From Bacilli bacterium (GTDB lineage: Bacteria > Bacillota_I > Bacilli_A > RFN20 > CAG-826), in the NCBI GenBank assembly GCA_035353055.1, contig DAOPYW010000002.1, forward strand, positions 4,574 through 68,573: a stretch of 64,000 nucleotides of DNA, given 5' to 3'. Position numbers and translations under genes: made by a program. Shown here one piece after another: positions 1,494-12,706 of the stretch. The notes beneath the pieces were generated by a model. It made no database searches, was not told the origin of the DNA, and worked only from the letters and a program-made list of their open reading frames with translations. Position 1 is the stretch's first letter, and every line of letters begins with the position of its first letter.

Positions 1494-1687
1494 GAATGGC
1501 CTCCAGTGATTTAATGTCTCAAACGCCTGATAATGAATATTTTTTAAATATTAATTAACGGGCTACGAGTAAATTATATTAACTCATTTTTATGCAACGT
1601 GCAAAGAAGATACAATTATCAATCTTTTTAATTTTTGATATCCTCATTTTCTGAATGAATTCGCAACATATGATTTTTGATAGTGAG

Positions 1688-1718
1688 AGAAAATAAAAAA
1701 ACGAGACGAATCTCGTTT
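1688..1718 (-). terminator. Rho-independent terminator downstream of hypothetical gene 1739..2278
   Basis: Hairpin acgaga-cgaa-tctcgt followed on the minus strand by a T7AT4 run, 20 nt after the stop codon. Confidence 0.45.
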
Positions 1719-1738
1719 AATGCAAATTCTTGGTATAA

Positions 1739-2278
1739 TTACTCATTCAATAAATCTTTATATTTTTTCCATGTTGAAATATATCTATTGTCCCATTTTA
1801 CACATGTAATATTGGAGTATTTAATAAGAACAGGCTTTTCCGACCATACTCCATCAGCATCAAAATATCTGAACAATACATCTGATTTATTTACTTTAAA
1901 TACTACTCCAATAAAATATTTTTCGTTATATTCATCTTCTATCGAAATAAACTTATTAAGTTTTGCCAATTGTTTGAGTATTATTTCCCAAGATGTGATA
2001 TCAATGTTTGGATTAGCTATTTGTGCAACAACGCCAATTGTTTGATTCATTTTATTGCATAGATCATTCCTAATTTCTGCCCTTGTTAAATCTGAAATTT
2101 TTCTAACCGCGTACCCATCTAAAAGAAAATCATCTTCTTCTTGTCCTAGCATAAACTTGTTATTCACATCTAACACGTAGTAATAGAAGTAATAACAATC
2201 GTATTTAAAAAAGCATCTGCACAATTCCTTGGCGTTTTTAGACTGATCCAAAATTGAAAGTTTCTCTTCTTTTTTCAT
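1739..2278 (-). CDS. Hypothetical protein in ~25% GC islet (alternative start 2311)
   Basis: ORF of 179-190 aa in a markedly AT-rich block. No recognisable motif. Own terminator. Confidence 0.4.
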   Translation of the reverse strand: MKKEEKLSILDQSKNAKELCRCFFKYDCYYFYYYVLDVNNKFMLGQEEDDFLLDGYAVRKISDLTRAEIRNDLCNKMNQTIGVVAQIANPNIDITSWEIILKQLAKLNKFISIEDEYNEKYFIGVVFKVNKSDVLFRYFDADGVWSEKPVLIKYSNITCVKWDNRYISTWKKYKDLLNE

Positions 2279-2484
2279 TGCTCTTACCTTTGAAAATGCG
2301 ATGTGCAACATCCGTTTATTGATTCTGAAAAGTATTCAATTATTCGGAAGTATGTTTCTCTTTAATGCATTTTTATTATTATACCACAAAATCACAAAGG
2401 CTTTTTCAACATCACTACCACGAATCATACCAAATAGAATTTAATCCTAAAATATTAACATATTAAATAAAAAAATACAGCAAG

Positions 2485-2510
2485 TGGTCAGTTCTCAATG
2501 CCGAAGCATG
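2485..2510. repeat. 26-bp perfect direct repeat (left copy) abutting IS left end; tggtcagttctcaatgccgaagcatg
   Basis: Identical 26-mer seen again at 3631..3656 in the same orientation. Confidence 0.7.
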
Positions 2511-3630
2511 TGTTAACTTTCAAATGATGTGAGACTTTTTTGTCCTTGCTTTGCTCTTATCTTAATAAGTTCATCGTAAAGTGACAATTCAATTTCATTC
2601 GGAGTTAAACATTTTAGTACAAACCTTGGTGTGTCATTATATCTTCTGTTCCATGATTCTCCTTGATTTCTTAAGTCTTCTAAGTTGAAGAACCTTAAGG
2701 TTCTATAGAATTTATCTTGGTCTATTCTATGGCTTCTTTCGACTTTTCCATTATGTTCAGGGGTTCTTGGTCTTATTAGCTTATGTATGATTCCTTTTTC
2801 AATACAATATTGTTCTAGATAATTTGGGTATTTTCTTGAATGAATGGTATTTGTTCTTTTCACTTTATCGGTGAATTCCAAGCCATTATCACTCTGCAAG
2901 ATGATTGGACTATATCCAAATGATCTAATAGCCTTTTTAAGAGCGGTTACGGTTTCATACAGACTATGTTCATTCGTGTAATGTAGATATCTTTTCCTGC
3001 TGCATTCGTCCAGGATTGTATATTGGTAAAACTTATTTTCGGAATGACCACCTGTATAACATTCTTTTGGAACGAATTTGACATCAATTTGCCATTTCTC
3101 ACCTATCATTGTCGGTGTGCGATAGGGCTTATCGTGTTTCTTTTTTGCGTTACTTAAATATGGTGAATATTCTTTATTTCTTTTTAAGATTCTCAGCGTA
3201 CTTGATAACGATATAACATAGTTATTTCTATGCATCTTTATCCAAATCTCCATATATGAATTATCTGGATTTCTTCGTTTTAAGTCCAGCACCTTTTTAA
3301 TTACTTCTTCTGATAATGTTTTTGGGTGAGGTGTCTTTGGTCTATGAGAGTGATCTTTTAAAGAGCCAGAAGTGCCGTCGTAAGCTTTTAACCATCTAAA
3401 CAACGATGATTTTCTGACATGATAAAAAGAACAAACCTTACTTATTTTCCAGTGCGATTCCTTTGCTCTTTTACAAGCATGGAATCTTGTTTCAATATCT
3501 ACAGGTACAAAGTTTCTTTCTTGTGTTAAAATGTCCATGGAGTCCTCCTTAACAAGTTGTGGTTAACTTATTATAAGCAAGGACTCTTTTATTTTCTTTA
3601 ATTTAGTCTCACATCAATTGAACTAGTACA
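2511..3630 (-). mobile_element. IS481-like insertion sequence (~1120 bp) with imperfect ~28-30 bp terminal inverted repeats beginning TGT (both ends contain tgatgtgagact)
   Basis: Left end tgttaactttcaaatgatgtgagact vs reverse complement of right end tgtactagttcaattgatgtgagact. Encloses a single DDE transposase ORF. Flanked by 26-bp direct repeats. Confidence 0.65.
2513..3538 (-). CDS. DDE (rve integrase-core) transposase, IS481-like, with N-terminal HTH
   Basis: Motifs DNGLEFT and RPRTPEHNGKVERSHR resemble IS481-family (RPY.P.TNGKVER) transposases. AAGGAGGA RBS upstream. Confidence 0.8.
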   Translation of the reverse strand: MDILTQERNFVPVDIETRFHACKRAKESHWKISKVCSFYHVRKSSLFRWLKAYDGTSGSLKDHSHRPKTPHPKTLSEEVIKKVLDLKRRNPDNSYMEIWIKMHRNNYVISLSSTLRILKRNKEYSPYLSNAKKKHDKPYRTPTMIGEKWQIDVKFVPKECYTGGHSENKFYQYTILDECSRKRYLHYTNEHSLYETVTALKKAIRSFGYSPIILQSDNGLEFTDKVKRTNTIHSRKYPNYLEQYCIEKGIIHKLIRPRTPEHNGKVERSHRIDQDKFYRTLRFFNLEDLRNQGESWNRRYNDTPRFVLKCLTPNEIELSLYDELIKIRAKQGQKSLTSFES

Positions 3631-3656
3631 TGGTCAGTTCTCAATGCCGAAGCATG
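3631..3656. repeat. 26-bp perfect direct repeat (right copy) abutting IS right end
   Basis: Identical to 2485..2510. Confidence 0.7.
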
Positions 3657-3703
3657 AATATAAAAAAGGTCTGGCACATTATACCAAACCTTATCTTTTC
3701 TAA

Positions 3704-3777
3704 TGGAGCAAGTGACGGGAATCGAACCCGCATAACTAGCTTGGAAGGCTAGTGTTCTACCACTGAACTACACTTGC
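3704..3777 (-). tRNA. tRNA-Gly (anticodon UCC), CCA encoded
   Basis: Reverse complement folds as a cloverleaf. Acceptor GCAAGTG/CACTTGC, D-stem GTTC/GAAC, anticodon stem CTAGC/GCTAG with loop CTTCCAA, T-arm CGGGTTCGATTCCCG, 3' TCCA. Confidence 0.9.
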
Positions 3778-5962: not shown

Positions 5963-8900
5963 ATGTCTGCTGATTTGTTTGCTCAAATTGTCAATATAGG
6001 TCTCATTGTTCTTTTTGTTGCCGCTATTGTGGGTTTCCTTATCGCGGGAATTGTCGGTTATAAACGAGGCATTTGGTCATCGACATATCGAATGCTATTC
6101 ATGCTCATTCTCGTCACTGTCGGGCTTGTATCGCTGACCGCAATCGCTGATATTTTAGGCAATATAAATCTTGATTTATTCATCCCTTACGAGACTATTA
6201 TTCTCACCAATGAAAAAACGGGAATAATTTACTACGCTCCAATCACTTCTTTCCATGATACTTTAGTGTCATGCTTCCGCGGATTTTACTATCTTTACAA
6301 TGTTTCTGGAAGCTACGCAGCCGCCACAGAATTTGCCGAAGCGCTGGCTTATTCAGTTGTCAAATTAGCCGCCTTTATGGTCATCATGATTCTCATTGTC
6401 ACGCTGGGATCGCTTTTATGCACTATCCTCTGGCATGCATTATTCAAGCACCTCATTCCCAAACTTGCGCGCAATAGAATTAAAGTTCGCTGGGTAGGCG
6501 TGGCTATGAATACCATCACATATGTAGTGGTGGGCTTTCTTTTCTTCTCGCCTTTTTCCTCAATGATAAACATTATCAATCAAAACTATTCGAGAAGAGA
6601 TGACGAAAACCAAGTGGTGGCTTATCTCAATGGCTTTGTTGAAACCTACGACAATTCTCTCTTTGCTCAGACGTTTTTTAACTGGACCGTCGATCCATCC
6701 ACTGGGATGACGATTGACACTACAATTCTCAATAGCCTGACCTCTTCCTCTTTGAAAAACGGCTCAATTGGCATCATCGAGAGCGTTTCTGAACTGACAA
6801 AAATTGCCAATGTTTTAGCTGAAAACATCGTAATTGGATCTGACAACAAGATTACTTTTAGTATTCCCGAGATGGTCAGCCAGGAGTATATCGAAACCCT
6901 CTTTGCATCTTTGAAAGATTCAAACTTGGTCATGATGATCATTCCATTAGCCATCCAGATATCCCTTAATTCTGATTTGCTCGCCGATTATGTTGACACT
7001 TCCCTTCTTGATTTATCCGATGCTGAATGGGATAAAGAACTAGATGCGATCGAAACAATCGCTATTGATGTCGCTAATAGCGGTATTGTCGATTCGTTCC
7101 TCGATGATGATGGAAACTTTGTTCTGCCAACCGACAATGCGGTTTTAATCTCTAGTTTGCTCACTAAAAAAGCTTACTCTTATACCTATCATGCTTTGAC
7201 TACCATCAGCGAGTCAAAATTGCTCTCGCGTAGCATTCCTGCTTTAATTCAGTATTTAATTAACAATGGTGGGGAAACCATGAAATCTTATTTCCCCACA
7301 ACTTTCGAAGCCTTAAACGATATCGATTGGGGATTTGAACTGAGCACTGTCTATGACTGCTTATATCAAATGTACTGCGCTGACAATCGCATCGTTACCG
7401 CGATTCTCAATATGAATTCTTCCGAAACTGGAGAAGGGGGAAGCGGACTCGCTCCTCTTCGCGCTGGAGAAGAAGATTTTACATTGATGGACGTTCTCTT
7501 AGAGAACATTGACGCCTATCGCCGCATTATTGTCGGAGAAACCAATACCGCCAATGAGCTCGTTAACCTTGATTCAAATGGGCGCACGATTGTCTATTCT
7601 AACGGCAAGAGAATCCCAGGCAGGCGCTATTCCCTCTTAGATATTTCTTTGTGCAAGACTATTTTTTCCTCTTTTGCGACAACGCTGGGCGAGCTCATCA
7701 GCGATGAGACAACCGAAACCGCTGTCTCCGCTGTTATGACAGAACTTTCCGCGGGCAAATGGATGAAAAACTATAAAGAAGAATTCAATGCTCTTTTCTA
7801 CTGCTTTTCCGCTTTTAGCGAAAACCCTGGCGCCCTTGATACTCTCACTAGCGGAGAATTAATCCCCGAGGGTGGCTCACTAAGCGATATCGACCCAGGA
7901 GTGGTTCGAGTGCTCTCTTTAGCGATGAAGAGGATGGATAAATCCAAGATTATCTATGCCATCTTAACACCCACTATAAATACTTTATTAACTACGGGAA
8001 GCATCGCCGAAGCGTTCCAGCAGAGCAACATTGACATCGCAATTGTCACGGATGGGGTTCATAAAGCTGAAGCGTCGCGAACTCTCGGCATCGAATTAGC
8101 AAAAATCATCGATTCAGTGAAACATTTTGGCACTCTTTCCGATATCTTATCGGGCGGGTATGATACCGCGACAATGATCAGCCATTTAGGCTCTGCTAGC
8201 GAGTCCATCGCTTATGCGCTTGACGCCGTCTACCGCTGCCGAATCATCAACCCTGTTCCTGAGCCAACAGATACTTACACAAAGAATGAAAACTACTTCA
8301 ATGTCATGAGTTACATCTTTGGTGATTCTCTGCATGTTGAAGGGCTAGCTTTTGACCAAACTTTGCTAAATGATCCCAACATAACTTGGGTAAACTCTAC
8401 CGATAGCAGTGGCAACTTTTACCATGACCGCTATGGAAATGCCATCTATGACGGTGAAAATGGTGCGATTGCCAATGTTATCAAAGCTCTCGCTTCATCG
8501 GGAATTATGACGGTGATGACTGATGATACATATCTATCAGGAAGCAATATGACCGATCATATCGCCTCTCTTGAAAACGATTATCATCTCTCGAGAATAT
8601 TATCTGCCGTAGGCGATAGCGCCGTCTTTTCAAGCACGATGGGGACATTCCTCGACGCTCAACTCGATCAGACTGGTATCCTCGCTCAAGGAGTCTCATT
8701 CACCAATGTCACTGACTGGAAAGATGAGGGAGAAAAACTCGGAGTTTTGCTCACGACAATCGGAGAAGCCGCGATTGATATGTCCAACCTTAATTTGAAT
8801 GCTATCACAAACGTTGTCGGCCTCAATGATCTTCTCCACGCTCTCGCTGATTCTTCAATGTTCATCGATAAGACTACTGGAAACTATTTGTTCTCCGGAT

Positions 8901-11900
8901 GGCTATATGCCAAAGCGGAAAGCAGCTTGACCAATTTCTCCGATGGAGTGAATAGCTACAACTTAATTAGAGATCCGCTAGTTTGGGACAGCACGTGGGG
9001 CACTAAAGGGCCGGACGATTATACGATTGTCAAAGGCGACTTTGCCTCATTAGATGAAAAAGGCGATTGGTGCAGCGAAGGTTTTACCCCTTCCTTTGAT
9101 ACCTCAAGCTATGTGGCTCCTTATGCGAGCTACACCAATTATTGGGACAACCCTCAGTTCATCGAGGACTACTCCGCTGTTCTAGAACTCGACGAAATCG
9201 GACGCCTCAGCAAGATTGTTTACTGGGTCACCCAAGCGGTGGCGACAAATGATTTGCTGAAACTTCCGACGAGGACTTTCGATGGGCTTGTCAATTCTCT
9301 CAATGACACCACCTGCCTGAGAGTGACGCCATACAATTTCTTTGAAATTGCTAAATCAGCCTTCCCGAGCAGTTCTTCATCTTCCTTCTTCGATCTGTCA
9401 CCCGCAAATACTTCATATTTAGTTTCGTGCGACCAATACATCAATGACTACGCTGCTTCAGCTCCGCTAAGACAAGTGGAAATTGATTATTTAACTAATA
9501 TTTATGCCACCTATCGCTTCATGGTTGATAATGGCATTTTGGATAGCAATAATCAGCTTGTGACTGATAAGATTGACGTTGAAGTATCCAATAAAGTGCG
9601 CGATTCCATCCTCGGAATTCAGGAATCATTAGTTTTCCATCGCAAAGGTTCTATTTTGGATCCTAACTTAAACGATGACACTGATGGCTATTATCCGACG
9701 GTTTTCCAAAACGGATTGTCGGCTTTCTTAACCGCTGAATATATGGGCGAAATTCTCTATAACTCCGATAGTCCAAAAGACACTTTTTACTACGATGATT
9801 ATGCCGAATATCTCGATCCAGATTTGGCAGTGGTTACTGAAAGCGATATCATAAAAGCTAAAGCCGATTATCTTCTCGACAACTACTTTGATTTTAGAGG
9901 TTTGAAAAACTTTAACTATAGCCAGCAAGTCGATGAAATCAACGCCATTTTTACTGTCGTCGATGCCATTGTCGGTGGGCCTATTGAAGGAACAACGGAA
10001 AACTATCAAGGCCTGCGCAAATCAGGCGGTGCCATCACCTTCAACTTTGAAAATTTTGACATCACCAACAGCGGCAACTCCATTGCTATAAACCAAATAA
10101 TGAATACTCTTAATGAAACGAATACGCTATTTGATTGCACTTCGAATATTATTTCTCTAGCGCTTGAAAACGCTTCTCAGTACAGCATTGTCAGCAATCT
10201 AACTCATGTTAATTTCGATGACACCAACATTTTCTATCACTATTTCGATGAGGAGAATTTGTTCGGGACACAGACATATAACTGGAATATCAGACTTGGA
10301 GAAGAAGAGATTTCCTTAGTCAGCGATATCGTGAGAGAAGTTTCAAAGTACCAAAATGGCGAGCCCTCAACCTTCCCCGATTTTGATACTATCGATACTT
10401 CGCTTACTTCTGTTCAAAATCTTGAGAATTTCCTCCACACATTGCAAGAAAGCAAAATGTTCCATACTGGCGGACCTGTGCTATCCTTATCTTTCGATGG
10501 CAGCCATAATGTTGTCTTGACCAATACCTCATCAACAGGGATGACCATCTTCCAAGAAATATGCGTGCAGATGTTCTCCGATGATACGCTATCATCTTCT
10601 CTTTTCCGCGCCGCCTCGCCAAAAGACCAAGCCAATATGGCTCTGGGATTATATTCAAACGCTGAGGAAAAAGCTGAATACTTGGCCGAGACTTTGTTCA
10701 CTCACGATGGATTAGGTGCTTCAGCCCTGTCCTTGCCTGCTCAGTCGACGGAAATCGATGACATCGGCGTATTTTTAACCGCTGCTTTGAAATTCCATGC
10801 CAATGATTTCAGCTCCATGAATTTGATGGATATCGACACCGATGATGTTCGCGAGGTGCTTGTCGCTCTCAATAATTGCGAATCCCTGTACGATACCGTT
10901 CCTAATCTCATCTCGACGATGATGGACCGCGATTTCACGACTTTCGAAGGCGTCGATTTATCCGATGCTTCTTCTTACTATCATTATCAGAGTGGTGGAA
11001 CCACCAACTACAATGTGAAATATGATGTCGATGAAATCGATAACATCGCCACCCTCCTCACTGACTATCAATCATTCACCACAATAGTTGGCACCAATAA
11101 CATGGGCGATCTCGCAGTCGTGAAAGCCCTATTGGAAAACGGATACATCTATGATTTATTCGTCGACTCCTATTCAAGCCACATTCTGCACATATCCAAT
11201 GACTACTTAACTTCTACGACCCACATGACTGTTTTCGAGCAAGTCATCAATATGTTTACTACCAAATCTGGCCTCACAAACTACGCTTACCCCGTTGACG
11301 GACCGGCAAAGATGATGGCTAAAATTAAAGCCGTCACAGCTCTCGACGAAGCTTATAAAGATGATGTGACCACTTATAATTCGACAGGCTATCACGAATG
11401 CTGGCTGAGAGTGACTGGCGATGATGAGATTCATGCTCTTGTTGACTTCATATCAACCAGCCGATCAATTCTCGGCGAAACAGGCTTGATGAATGTCGCC
11501 AACTTGCAAATGGATAACATCGATCCATCAGAAACCAGAGATGTCATGACTTCCATCAATAAAGTTGATTTTCTCAACGATGTGATGCCAGTCTTTGTCT
11601 CTCAAGGCTTTGACGCGATTGGTCTAAGTTCTCTCTCATCTTATAATTCCATCAATCATTCTTATATTAATATAGGCCAATATCAATATGGCGGAGCTCG
11701 CGGAGCAACCAACATCGATTACTGCGAAATCAACAATATTTACGCCGCTTTGAGCAACATGGTTAAATATGATACCGAGAATAATTTTGATGGTTACCAC
11801 AGCCTCGGAAACATGATTCTCCTCGCTGATAATACCAGCAATTTTGATGGCATTGTTCGCTTCATCAGCCACAGCCGCATTCTGAACACTGATCAAAGCG

Positions 11901-12706
11901 GTAGCTTTGACACGATGTGGGATTTGTCGGGCTATTCCGTTGCCACCCGCGGATTATTGATTTATAACATTCTCACCGCTGGGCAATCAGATCCCAATAG
12001 CGGAGCCAATCTTGGCCAGTATGTCACTGGCAGTACTCCGGAAGAAAAAATTGCTGTTCTATCGAGAATCTTCACCTTCGCAAACTACAACGATCAGGCC
12101 GAATCGCGCGGATTATTCACGCTGGCATCCAATTCCGATCACATTGATCAAAATAACTTGGACATCGATGATTTTGATGCCATTACTAACGCTCGCAATG
12201 AAGTCACTGTCTCGATGAAAGCGGCATATGACTCCTATGGCAATGGCAGCAATGTCCGCTCTTATTTCGCTAGCGAAATTATGTCTACCTTCCTCGATAA
12301 TATCATGGAAATCCAGTATGACGTTATCGATGGCCTTGGCTATTACTATGAAGAAATACACTTTGGTCCTACAGCGCTTGCTGGAGTCAATCAAACCGCT
12401 TATGAAAACGTCAATAGTGTGGAGTGCGATGGCTTGAACGGATCGCTCAACGCGGTGCTCATTGTGAATGGAATTATCAGCACTGGCACATTGCCGACCC
12501 GCGTAGAGTTAATCGGCGCCTTCACCCTCATGGATAATAGCGCTTCCGCGAAGGTGTTCTATCTCGCCCGCATTCACGACAACCTCGGATTAGTTACCCA
12601 GTCAGCGCCTCCAGTTTGGACTGACTATACCTCAAGTATCTACGCCCCAGGATTTGACTTCGGCGTATACGGCACATCCCTAGCTGATTATTTCTCTCTC
12701 AGTTAA
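5963..12706 (+). CDS. Giant (2247 aa) membrane-anchored surface protein of unknown function; 4 N-terminal TM helices then ~2000-aa acidic N/D/S/T/Y-rich ectodomain
   Basis: Single uninterrupted ORF. Four hydrophobic segments in the first ~200 aa. Almost no Cys. No recognisable enzymatic motif or tandem repeat. Putative own promoter (TTGACT-17-TATTAG) and GAGG RBS upstream. Confidence 0.7.
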   Translation: MSADLFAQIVNIGLIVLFVAAIVGFLIAGIVGYKRGIWSSTYRMLFMLILVTVGLVSLTAIADILGNINLDLFIPYETIILTNEKTGIIYYAPITSFHDTLVSCFRGFYYLYNVSGSYAAATEFAEALAYSVVKLAAFMVIMILIVTLGSLLCTILWHALFKHLIPKLARNRIKVRWVGVAMNTITYVVVGFLFFSPFSSMINIINQNYSRRDDENQVVAYLNGFVETYDNSLFAQTFFNWTVDPSTGMTIDTTILNSLTSSSLKNGSIGIIESVSELTKIANVLAENIVIGSDNKITFSIPEMVSQEYIETLFASLKDSNLVMMIIPLAIQISLNSDLLADYVDTSLLDLSDAEWDKELDAIETIAIDVANSGIVDSFLDDDGNFVLPTDNAVLISSLLTKKAYSYTYHALTTISESKLLSRSIPALIQYLINNGGETMKSYFPTTFEALNDIDWGFELSTVYDCLYQMYCADNRIVTAILNMNSSETGEGGSGLAPLRAGEEDFTLMDVLLENIDAYRRIIVGETNTANELVNLDSNGRTIVYSNGKRIPGRRYSLLDISLCKTIFSSFATTLGELISDETTETAVSAVMTELSAGKWMKNYKEEFNALFYCFSAFSENPGALDTLTSGELIPEGGSLSDIDPGVVRVLSLAMKRMDKSKIIYAILTPTINTLLTTGSIAEAFQQSNIDIAIVTDGVHKAEASRTLGIELAKIIDSVKHFGTLSDILSGGYDTATMISHLGSASESIAYALDAVYRCRIINPVPEPTDTYTKNENYFNVMSYIFGDSLHVEGLAFDQTLLNDPNITWVNSTDSSGNFYHDRYGNAIYDGENGAIANVIKALASSGIMTVMTDDTYLSGSNMTDHIASLENDYHLSRILSAVGDSAVFSSTMGTFLDAQLDQTGILAQGVSFTNVTDWKDEGEKLGVLLTTIGEAAIDMSNLNLNAITNVVGLNDLLHALADSSMFIDKTTGNYLFSGWLYAKAESSLTNFSDGVNSYNLIRDPLVWDSTWGTKGPDDYTIVKGDFASLDEKGDWCSEGFTPSFDTSSYVAPYASYTNYWDNPQFIEDYSAVLELDEIGRLSKIVYWVTQAVATNDLLKLPTRTFDGLVNSLNDTTCLRVTPYNFFEIAKSAFPSSSSSSFFDLSPANTSYLVSCDQYINDYAASAPLRQVEIDYLTNIYATYRFMVDNGILDSNNQLVTDKIDVEVSNKVRDSILGIQESLVFHRKGSILDPNLNDDTDGYYPTVFQNGLSAFLTAEYMGEILYNSDSPKDTFYYDDYAEYLDPDLAVVTESDIIKAKADYLLDNYFDFRGLKNFNYSQQVDEINAIFTVVDAIVGGPIEGTTENYQGLRKSGGAITFNFENFDITNSGNSIAINQIMNTLNETNTLFDCTSNIISLALENASQYSIVSNLTHVNFDDTNIFYHYFDEENLFGTQTYNWNIRLGEEEISLVSDIVREVSKYQNGEPSTFPDFDTIDTSLTSVQNLENFLHTLQESKMFHTGGPVLSLSFDGSHNVVLTNTSSTGMTIFQEICVQMFSDDTLSSSLFRAASPKDQANMALGLYSNAEEKAEYLAETLFTHDGLGASALSLPAQSTEIDDIGVFLTAALKFHANDFSSMNLMDIDTDDVREVLVALNNCESLYDTVPNLISTMMDRDFTTFEGVDLSDASSYYHYQSGGTTNYNVKYDVDEIDNIATLLTDYQSFTTIVGTNNMGDLAVVKALLENGYIYDLFVDSYSSHILHISNDYLTSTTHMTVFEQVINMFTTKSGLTNYAYPVDGPAKMMAKIKAVTALDEAYKDDVTTYNSTGYHECWLRVTGDDEIHALVDFISTSRSILGETGLMNVANLQMDNIDPSETRDVMTSINKVDFLNDVMPVFVSQGFDAIGLSSLSSYNSINHSYINIGQYQYGGARGATNIDYCEINNIYAALSNMVKYDTENNFDGYHSLGNMILLADNTSNFDGIVRFISHSRILNTDQSGSFDTMWDLSGYSVATRGLLIYNILTAGQSDPNSGANLGQYVTGSTPEEKIAVLSRIFTFANYNDQAESRGLFTLASNSDHIDQNNLDIDDFDAITNARNEVTVSMKAAYDSYGNGSNVRSYFASEIMSTFLDNIMEIQYDVIDGLGYYYEEIHFGPTALAGVNQTAYENVNSVECDGLNGSLNAVLIVNGIISTGTLPTRVELIGAFTLMDNSASAKVFYLARIHDNLGLVTQSAPPVWTDYTSSIYAPGFDFGVYGTSLADYFSLS

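Follow-up and report, generated by a model that had tools for sequence, protein, structure and literature searches.

A recently inserted, probably still active IS481-family element of the ISSsu8-like clade with 26-bp target-site duplications next to tRNA-Gly

The length of a target-site duplication tells how far apart the two active sites of a transpososome lie along its target, and thus reports transpososome geometry. To our knowledge, almost every DDE transposase or retroviral integrase generates duplications of 2–9 bp; duplications of ~25–28 bp have been described for IS1202 and, in rare copies, for IS481EU, and we know of no structure that accounts for this length. In the 64,000-nucleotide stretch of DNA analysed here (the window), an initial annotation had described a 1,120-bp element with one DDE transposase and imperfect TGT...ACA terminal repeats, bracketed by perfect 26-bp direct repeats. 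Are these repeats the product of transposition and, if so, what kind of transposase makes them? The element and its borders comprise the following features:

2485–2510, no strand: target-site duplication, IRR-side copy, 26 bp, TGGTCAGTTCTCAATGCCGAAGCATG, perfect repeat of 3631–3656
2511–3630, minus strand: insertion sequence (IS), IS481 family, ISSsu8-like clade, 1,120 bp, TGT...ACA, delimited by the homology limits of other copies
2511–2536, minus strand: IRR, transposase-distal inverted repeat, containing the stop and last codons of the transposase
2513–3538, minus strand: transposase gene, 341 aa, one intact ORF (Pfam rve 5.8e-16, rve_3, HTH_32)
3605–3630, minus strand: IRL, transposase-proximal inverted repeat, containing a -10-like TTCAAT that faces inward and lies 8 nt from the tip
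3631–3656, no strand: target-site duplication, IRL-side copy, 26 bp, perfect repeat

Each part of the initial description was recovered. The two copies of the 26-mer are the only ones in the window with up to three mismatches allowed, while 0 of 100 shuffled controls matched. A BLAST comparison of the window to itself returned no further repeat, and no other full or degenerate copy of the IS lies within the 64 kb. The GC content of the IS is 33%, as against 41% for the window. The terminal inverted repeats, TGTTAACTTTCAAATGATGTGAGACT and the reverse complement of the opposite end, TGTACTAGTTCAATTGATGTGAGACT, match at 20 of 26 positions and at 17 of the 18 positions of their core; the duplication is as long as the inverted repeat. 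An outward-facing -35-like TTGAAA is located in the IRR, 7 nt from the tip.

The transposase ORF is preceded by an AGGAGG ribosome-binding site, and its product is identical in sequence to HNX15841.1 ('DDE-type integrase/transposase/recombinase [Bacilli bacterium]'). [quoted passage not shown]

Nearly identical copies of the IS are present at other genomic sites. DNA identity is 99.8% for the copy at locus L008 and 99.5% for L013 and L014, in each case over exactly bases 1–1120, and copies elsewhere differ from the window IS by 2 and 6 nucleotides. At L008 and L013, similarity stops exactly at the TGT/ACA tips. L013 carries its own 26-bp repeat, AATCAACAAATATTTAGCAAATATGA, on both sides, whereas the flanks of L008 possess neither the window 26-mer nor any flanking repeat. 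The Logan contig L014 consists of the IS from tip to tip, 1,120 bp, and such tip-to-tip contigs indicate that several copies of the IS exist in other samples.

These observations agree with the initial impression of a recent, possibly active element, and we consider it very probable that the window holds a recently inserted, probably still active IS481-family IS of the ISSsu8-like clade, which generates 24–26-bp duplications by staggered cutting. The alternative that survives best accepts the 26-bp duplication as real and regards the element as a dead relic, fixed in the population and immobile. The IS occupies the same position in an identical arrangement in 9/9 contigs of the window locus, and a single copy is present in the 64-kb window, as a relic would have it. 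However, the intact ORF with its ribosome-binding site, the invariant DDE residues, the perfect duplication, the copies only 2 and 6 nucleotides apart at other sites and the tip-to-tip contigs speak against immobility, and we judge this alternative to be unlikely.

Which family does the transposase belong to? Among NCBIfam models, IS481 (NF033577) scored best at 170.5 bits (E = 5.5e-50, profile positions 2–280 of 284), below its curated cut-off of 224 bits, followed by IS3 (73 bits), IS21 (70 bits) and ISNCY_2 (40.5 bits); the ISSsu8 core alone reached 138.7 bits on NF033577. BLASTP against ISfinder catalytic cores taken from Kojima 2023 returned, as by far the nearest catalogued core, that of ISSsu8, an IS481-family element of Streptococcus suis (50% identity, 163 bits; overall protein identity ~44–50%); the next best match, likewise an IS481 member, scored 60 bits, and the core of IS481 itself 35 bits at ~22% core identity. 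The earlier assignment as IS481-like is thereby upheld. With canonical members such as IS481 and IS1002, the element shares a single-ORF rve DDE transposase with an N-terminal HTH and TGT...ACA ends; the ORF possesses no programmed frameshift, and 1,120 bp lies within the ~0.95–1.3 kb of the family.

The duplication does not conform to this family. IS481-family duplications in ISfinder (as of 2022) range from 2 to 15 bp and are mostly 6 bp, and entries in the data file of the same paper reach 16 bp (PMC10045372), as compared to the 26 bp observed here and 24–26 bp in 29 relatives. As had been pointed out at the outset, this length is instead that of the IS1202 class, where duplications are 24–29 bp, mostly 27–28 bp, with hosts among Firmicutes and Tenericutes (bioRxiv 10.1101/2022.12.17.520857). 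One could then regard the element as an undersized representative of the IS1202 family (formerly ISNCY), since with IS1202 and ISSeq2 it has in common the long duplication, the TGT ends, the host range and the Gln at E+7, Q274. It is, however, too short: IS1202-family elements measure 1,320–1,990 bp and encode transposases of 400–500 aa (bioRxiv 10.1101/2022.12.17.520857), compared to 1,120 bp and 341 aa for the window element. Besides Gln at E+7, the IS1202-family signature comprises two extra Asp residues between the catalytic Asp residues (IDDA; bioRxiv 10.1101/2022.12.17.520857), and the IS1202 subgroup possesses a ~30-aa insertion ahead of the catalytic domain together with IDDA and TDK motifs. 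The corresponding DD position of the window transposase, D177-E178 (ILDE), holds a single Asp, and its motifs ILDE, SDNGxEF and HNGKVER are IS481-like, where IS1202-like motifs would read IDDA, TDK and AKGRVER. The scores also separate the two families. NF033594 (ISNCY_2) can be taken as the IS1202-family model because on it the IS1202 core by itself reaches 187 bits (the ISAba32 core, 215 bits); the window transposase scored 40.5 bits, far below the cut-off of 250. BLASTP, in which IS1202 was compared by cores only, gave no match to the IS1202 core and a non-significant one to ISSeq2 (E = 4.3), versus 163 bits for ISSsu8. Membership in the IS1202 family is thus very unlikely; judged by its sequence, the transposase is of the IS481 type and not of the IS1202 type, and its kinship to IS1202 would extend to the general DDE fold only.

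We surveyed 56 relative loci for the same behaviour, each complete at both ends and with 30 bp or more of flank. Perfect repeats abutting the fixed TGT/ACA tips were found at 29/56 loci, with lengths of 24 bp (n=2), 25 bp (n=16) and 26 bp (n=11); allowing mismatches or shifting the tips had stretched the duplications to 27–29 bp, and it is with fixed tips that they measure 24–26 bp. The 29 repeat-bearing insertions are independent, spanning 41–76% protein identity, mutually unrelated repeat sequences and hosts among Bacilli, Clostridia and Tenericutes, from both MAGs and isolates. At L011 (76% protein identity), for example, the 26-bp flanking repeat is ATAATTGCTATCATACATTAACTTAA; the complete Ihubacter genome CP187532 contributes two copies to the survey loci and one 1-Mb MAG contig three of its four, and at L054 a 25-bp repeat overlaps the IRR tip. 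Some 26 of the 56 loci carry no perfect repeat, L026 and L035 among them having imperfect ones; others may be explained by chimeric metagenome assembly or by copies having recombined with one another. Now and then, the tips of different family members are separated by exactly one duplication length.

Closer relatives of ISSsu8 display the same features: the end motif TGT-N12-GATGTGAGAC, a length of ~1.11–1.13 kb and duplications of 25–26 bp (L119, 92% core identity, 26 bp; L046, 78%, 25 bp). A 92%-identical ISSsu8-like copy in the chromosome assembly of Streptococcus pluranimalium (CM132539.1) is flanked by a perfect 26-bp duplication, ATACTTGGATAGGAGATAGAACTACT. ISSsu8 itself resides in Streptococcus, and the window element in the MAG of an uncultured member of the Bacilli from anaerobic digesters. 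Genomic relatives number more than 565 among the matches listed; a plasmid collection contained only relatives of at most 31% identity, and such distant plasmid relatives are named 'IS481 family transposase' by PGAP. The long duplication is a clade-wide trait and not a peculiarity of the window copy. That near-identical and related copies carry different repeats of equal length settles in the affirmative the initial supposition that the repeats are target duplications. We regard the limits of the element and the family of its transposase as established, as well as a clade-wide 24–26-bp duplication whose sequence changes from site to site.

The insertion site itself invites a different explanation, as the IS is located next to a tRNA gene and within a segment that varies among strains:

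3704–3777, minus strand: tRNA-Gly(UCC), 3' end toward the IS (ARAGORN; Rfam tRNA, 75.8 bits)
3666–3692, minus strand: intrinsic-terminator-like hairpin of tRNA-Gly, with the T-tract 3657–3665 adjoining
1614–3703, no strand: strain-variable segment holding the IS, delimited by comparison with the strains at L100, L102, L104 and L105
1739–2311, minus strand: ORF190, no Pfam or NCBIfam match

The distance between tRNA-Gly and the duplication copy at 3631–3656 is 47 bp, close to the ~50 bp estimated originally, and the duplicated target starts straight after the terminator T-tract. An Rfam scan of the entire window returned tRNA only. Homology to the other strains ends precisely at the tRNA 3' end (3704) and restarts at 1613; between these points the window has 2,090 bp (918 bp of 28%-GC DNA with ORF190, the IS and the extra duplication copy), versus 97 unrelated bp in all four strains. 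Given the nearby tRNA 3' end and a low-GC variable segment bordered exactly by it, the 26-mers might be att-like cores left by site-specific integration at the tRNA, or the outcome of recombination or duplication in which the transposase had no part. We find this hardly credible: no integrase or recombinase besides the DDE transposase was found, the variable segment is not bordered by att-like or tRNA-derived repeats, and the repeat differs in sequence at 29 sites while remaining 24–26 bp in length and always abutting the tips, a combination that argues for staggered cutting over a fixed att core. Intergenic and beside a tRNA gene, the insertion is neutral-looking for the host.

The last alternative, that the 26-mer belongs to the element as a sub-terminal repeat or that the element really extends 26 bp beyond the assumed tips, cannot be told apart from a duplication at one locus, where 9/9 contigs are alike, yet it is virtually eliminated by L008 and L013, which lack the 26-mer with similarity ending at the tips (L013 having its own repeat), by L014, which ends at both tips, and by an exact metagenome-contig scan in which the 26-mer occurred in two contigs only, both of this locus and both filled. 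The 26-mer is accordingly not seen beside the same IS elsewhere, which removes the principal reservation attached to it initially. An ORF190 look-up returned filled loci throughout. In a look-up of the neighbouring thioredoxin gene, IS-free strains lacked the entire 2,090-bp segment, so that no precise empty site was obtained; the gene adjoining the S. pluranimalium copy had no homologue in other genomes, and no empty site was obtained there either.

Returning to a staggered-cutting IS481-family element, a mechanistic model can be outlined. The 341-aa DDE transposase would recognise the 25–26-bp inverted repeats (TGT...GATGTGAsAC) and attach both 3' ends of the IS to phosphates in the target with a stagger of 24–26 bp, or ~2.5 helical turns. 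The two resulting single-stranded gaps would be filled by host repair, giving rise to the 26-bp direct repeat. The target is AT-rich intergenic DNA following the tRNA-Gly terminator, within the low-GC strain-specific segment, and the pre-insertion site would read ...TATTTTTTTATTT...CAGCAAG-[one 26-mer]-AATATAAAAAAGG.

The ends of the clade are asymmetric, and this asymmetry is conserved across 71 IRL and 69 IRR sequences. The IRR consensus is TCACATCA-TTGACA-N8-tip and the IRL consensus tip-TGTAGtGT-TACAAT-TGATGTGAgAC, with TACAAT located 8 nt from the IRL tip in 58/71 sequences and TTGACA 8 nt from the IRR tip. Copy-out-paste-in IS typically have an outward -35 in the IRR and an inward -10 in the IRL (Siguier et al., bioRxiv 10.1101/2022.12.17.520857). 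From homology with IS3/IS481 and the conserved asymmetry of the ends, we infer that transposition probably proceeds copy-out-paste-in, via a circle or an abutted-ends intermediate. As the -35 and the -10 each lie 8 nt from their tip, abutted ends separated by a 0–2-bp spacer would create a predicted promoter. No circle junction was seen among the matches listed in the collection scans. L031 and L073 hold head-to-tail IRR-(24/25 bp)-IRL arrangements, which, if they are junctions, would argue against the 0–2-bp spacer of such a promoter. An assembly artefact was considered for these arrangements; the two copies in L073 are different elements.

The target bias of the clade is symmetric: 24/29 sites have A at position -5 (p=8e-7) and 20/29 have T at position +5 (p=3e-4), suggesting that the transpososome makes weak symmetric contacts 5–7 bp outside each cut (CAA...TTG). 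Its active sites would be situated ~85–90 Å apart along the target. The equal lengths of duplication and inverted repeat, the CAA...TTG contacts and the spacing of family members by one duplication length hint that transposase subunits binding along the target act as the ruler for the stagger. IS21 requires the helper ATPase IstB and makes short duplications. Its IstA transpososome (IS5376; PDB 8B4H, 8Q4D) is the only solved structure detectable by profile (E ~1e-6, catalytic core) and, with a DDE core and an HTH N-terminus, serves as the best available structural template, albeit from a different family.

Duplications of this size are also encountered in IS481EU/Banshee of Trichomonas and other parabasalids, eukaryotic IS481-derived elements with TGT ends whose core is 24.6% identical to the window transposase (37.7 bits). 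Their duplications fall into classes of ~4, 15 and 24–25 bp spaced by approximately one helical turn, and classes of ~5, 15 and 25 bp across IS481, IS1202 and IS481EU follow a ~10-bp periodicity (PMC10045372). The ~25-bp class is represented by rare copies only in IS481EU, whereas it is the uniform outcome in the clade of the window element. Our literature search found no earlier account of long duplications in IS481/ISSsu8-like elements. With a little less than even confidence, we propose that the ISSsu8-like elements constitute an unrecognised IS481 subgroup with a uniform 24–26-bp (2.5-turn) stagger set by a compact 341-aa transposase, separate in sequence from IS1202; from this separation it would follow that the long stagger either arose repeatedly or is ancestral to both.

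ISfinder, as relayed in Kojima 2023 DataS2, lists a 3-bp duplication for ISSsu8, and this label suggests that annotation tools expecting short duplications will mis-set the ends of such elements or miss the duplication altogether. Repeats of 26 bp flanking a repeated element may also affect short-k-mer assembly. An IS481 lineage that is small and abundant, needs a single protein and invariably generates 24–26-bp duplications would be a convenient model for the geometry of long-stagger transposition.

The insertion sequence (IS) beside tRNA-Gly(UCC) spans 1,120 bp, starts with TGT, ends with ACA, and lies between two identical copies of a 26-nt perfect direct repeat, TGGTCAGTTCTCAATGCCGAAGCATG, in the following arrangement.

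Features at the insertion site (window coordinates)
1718-1699, minus strand: own terminator of the ORF190 segment
1739-2311, minus strand: ORF190, 190 aa, within a 918-bp low-GC segment
2485-2510: first copy of the 26-nt repeat
2511-3630: the IS, 1,120 bp
2513-3538, minus strand: transposase ORF, 341 aa, filling the IS, with AGGAGG upstream of its ATG start
3631-3656: second copy of the 26-nt repeat
3692-3666: terminator-like hairpin, then a T-tract, downstream of tRNA-Gly
3704-3777, minus strand: tRNA-Gly(UCC)

The terminal inverted repeats are 26 bp long, match at 20 of 26 positions and contain the core TTCAAWTGATGTGAGACT; the transposase stop codon is positioned 2 bp from the IS tip, so that the final codons are encoded within the inverted repeat. 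The duplicated 26-mer starts directly past the T-tract behind the tRNA-Gly hairpin. Elsewhere in the 64-kb window, no further copy of the 26-mer was found at up to three mismatches, none of 100 control shuffles gave a 26-mer match, and self-BLAST detected no other repeats. The initial annotation, which had described a one-transposase element with imperfect TGT...ACA ends, immediately flanked by identical 26-bp repeats and close to the tRNA-Gly 3' end, was accurate throughout.

Other copies of the IS establish that the 26-mer is target rather than element DNA. An exact-protein look-up placed the transposase in 18 contigs; nine of the ten places listed represent this locus again and carry identical repeats. 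At the tenth, L008, the IS differs by 2 mismatches in 1,120 bp and sits in another context, with the end of an IS3-type element on one side and tRNA-Met on the other, and the window 26-mer is absent from both flanks. A 99.5%-identical copy between unrelated genes (L013) has AATCAACAAATATTTAGCAAATATGA at either end, 26 bp with the tips fixed at TGT/ACA, and in L011, a copy at 76% protein identity, the flanking repeat is ATAATTGCTATCATACATTAACTTAA, likewise 26 bp. A Logan contig (L014) measures 1,120 bp, exactly tip to tip, the expected assembler output for a multi-copy repeat with differing flanks. Since the L008, L013 and L011 flanks differ and L014 ends at the tips, the possibility that the 26-mer is part of the element is ruled out. 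The proposed target-site duplication thus holds on two counts: the 26-mer does not accompany the IS to L008 or L013, and L013 and L011 possess 26-bp repeats of their own. The 99.8%-identical L008 copy (L008:2042-3161) is without any flanking direct repeat, which may reflect a chimeric assembly or between-copy recombination.

A one-genome-per-species scan yielded more than 565 relatives, and the 80 top-ranking loci (41-61% protein identity) were inspected. These derive from MAGs of Bacilli, Clostridia and Tenericutes and from isolates, Ihubacter, Peptoniphilus, Gallibacter and Streptococcus among them, and all 80 share the end motif TGT-N12-GATGTGA(G/C/A)AC, from which the tips were set. Repeats were counted at those 56 loci for which both ends plus 30 bp or more of flanking sequence were available.

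Perfect direct repeats abutting the element tips
24 bp: 2/56 loci
25 bp: 16/56 loci
26 bp: 11/56 loci
16 bp: 1/56 loci (L054, where a 25-bp repeat overlaps the tip of the transposase-distal inverted repeat, IRR)
3 bp or less: 26/56 loci

The repeat sequences all differ between loci; the two copies in a complete Ihubacter chromosome both bear one, as do three of the four on a 1-Mb MAG contig. L026 and L035, which lack a perfect repeat, carry one-mismatch versions; the other loci lacking one may be decayed copies, products of between-copy recombination or chimeric assemblies, and repeat-less IS1202 copies have been ascribed to recombination between copies (Siguier et al., 10.1101/2022.12.17.520857). 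The 24-26-bp duplications of any sequence show that strand transfer is staggered by ~2.5 turns and followed by gap repair.

The transposase possesses the Pfam domains rve, rve_3 and HTH_32. Its top NCBIfam model is IS481 (170.5 bits, below the curated cut-off of 224), followed by IS3 (73 bits), IS21 (70 bits) and ISNCY_2 (40.5 bits); ISNCY_2 is the IS1202-family model, on which the isolated catalytic cores of IS1202 and ISAba32 reach 187 and 215 bits, respectively. In BLASTP against ISfinder catalytic cores from IS481 and IS1202 elements, labelled by recorded duplication length (Kojima 2023 supplement, PMC10045372), ISSsu8 was nearest (50% identity, 163 bits), with ISMtsp15 next (60 bits), IS481 at 35 bits, ISSeq2 at E = 4.3, and no match to the IS1202 core. 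The motifs WQIDV, ILDECSR, SDNGLEF and HNGKVERSHR are IS481-like, and the residues D152, D217 and E267 do not vary; a Gln at E+7 (Q274) is shared with IS1202. The IS1202 family is defined by elements of 1,320-1,990 bp with transposases of 400-500 aa (Siguier et al., 10.1101/2022.12.17.520857), and the window element (1,120 bp, 341 aa) is too small to fit. The element is thus IS1202-like in outcome, yet by its sequence is a member of the ISSsu8-like branch of the IS481 family. Of the initial annotation, the IS481-like assignment is borne out, as is the likeness of the duplication to those of the IS1202/ISNCY group; the transposase itself is of the IS481 type. In public records the protein has a generic name (HNX15841.1, ‘DDE-type integrase/transposase/recombinase [Bacilli bacterium]’), and among solved structures sequence comparison picks up only the IS21 IstA transposase (PDB 8B4H, 8Q4D; E about 1e-6).

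As the initial annotation had noted, 26 bp far exceeds the usual IS481 length. IS481 duplications in ISfinder 2022 are 2-15 bp, mostly 6 with some around 15, and single IS481 entries reach 16 bp in the accompanying data file, which labels ISSsu8 ‘3bp’ (PMC10045372). The same source gives classes of 5-6, 15-17 and 24-29 bp for the IS1202 group and about 4, 15 and 24-25 bp for IS481EU, spaced by approximately one helical turn. Against the ISSsu8 core, L046 (25-bp duplication) shows 78% identity, and many further loci that carry 25-26-bp duplications show 69-74%. In the chromosome assembly CM132539.1 of Streptococcus pluranimalium, an ISSsu8-like copy with 92% identity (L119) has perfect 26-mer flanks, ATACTTGGATAGGAGATAGAACTACT; this copy is split by an inserted IS3-family element. 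An ISSsu8-like element also ends at least 13 contigs of the Streptococcus sp. H49 draft (GCA_040930525.1; L109-L118), and the different flank at each of ten inspected contig ends indicates a recent burst of copies. Our literature search found no earlier report of long duplications in the ISSsu8-like lineage.

Four other strains (L100, L102, L104 and L105) match the window at 96-99.9% identity on both sides and carry 97 unrelated bp in place of its 2,090 bp (1614-3703); homology ends exactly at the tRNA-Gly 3' end (3704) and restarts at 1613. The extra DNA of the window comprises the IS, the extra duplication copy and 918 bp at 28% GC (window average 41%). As strains without the IS differ over the whole segment at the tRNA end, the IS landed in a strain-variable islet; a precise empty site was not recovered. 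The islet (1614-3703) contains no integrase, its borders bear no att-like repeats, and ORF190 matches no Pfam or NCBIfam family. A few kb from the IS, a 2,247-aa ORF (5963-12706), called at 1,122 aa in some contigs, adjoins Rce1-like and TraX-like genes.

The duplicated DNA is AT-rich (21% GC). Immediately beyond the duplication, the flanks of 29 insertions (L011-L086, L119) show a weak bias with two-fold symmetry, C-7 A-6 A-5 ... T+5 T+6 G+7: position -5 is A at 24/29 sites (p=8e-7), and position +5 is T at 20/29 (p=3e-4). A tRNA gene lies 26-75 bp away, upstream or downstream and in either orientation, in six of 51 insertions examined (the window and 50 loci), far above expectation from tRNA density: the window, L008 (3232), L025 (1723), L026 (1748), L034 (3074) and L066 (3124). 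Such proximity may come from a tendency to insert into AT-rich promoter or terminator DNA, or from neutral insertions being the ones that survive. At 24-26 bp, the duplication is as long as the inverted repeat conserved in the clade (25 nt).

The DDE transposase has intact catalytic residues, and the 25-nt inverted repeats are conserved. From the differences between its two ends, the IS is hypothesized to transpose by copy-out-paste-in with a junction promoter. End asymmetry is kept across the clade (consensus from L011-L094; window ends 2511-2536 and 3605-3630). The IRR consensus, TCACATCA-TTGACA-N8-tip, places an outward TTGACA-like -35 8 nt from the tip; that of the transposase-proximal repeat (IRL), tip-N8-TACAAT-TGATGTGA, places an inward TACAAT -10 likewise 8 nt from the tip, with TACAAT present in 58/71 IRLs. 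The window element carries TTGAAA and TTCAAT. Given these positions, ends abutted with a 0-2-bp spacer would create TTGACA-N16-18-TACAAT, a sigma-70-type promoter, a layout also given for copy-out-paste-in IS (Siguier et al., 10.1101/2022.12.17.520857); no such junction was observed. Two different clade members stand head-to-tail as IRR-(25 bp)-IRL at L073:1700-1790, exactly one duplication length tip to tip, and L031:1829-1900 has, also head-to-tail, an isolated 40-bp piece of IRR placed 24 bp ahead of a full copy; these could represent targeting of DNA beside a resident end, or a junction relic.

The perfect duplication, intact gene, near-identical copies elsewhere and IS GC content (33% vs 41% for the host) suggest recent activity, in keeping with the recent, possibly active element first proposed, and the overall interpretation in the initial annotation is supported. 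The IS is functionally ordinary; its 26-bp duplication is the norm across a large, ISSsu8-like IS481 branch. The element is of interest as a small system for asking how a 2.5-turn stagger is fixed by DDE transposases, and the result corrects the annotation of the ISSsu8-like lineage.
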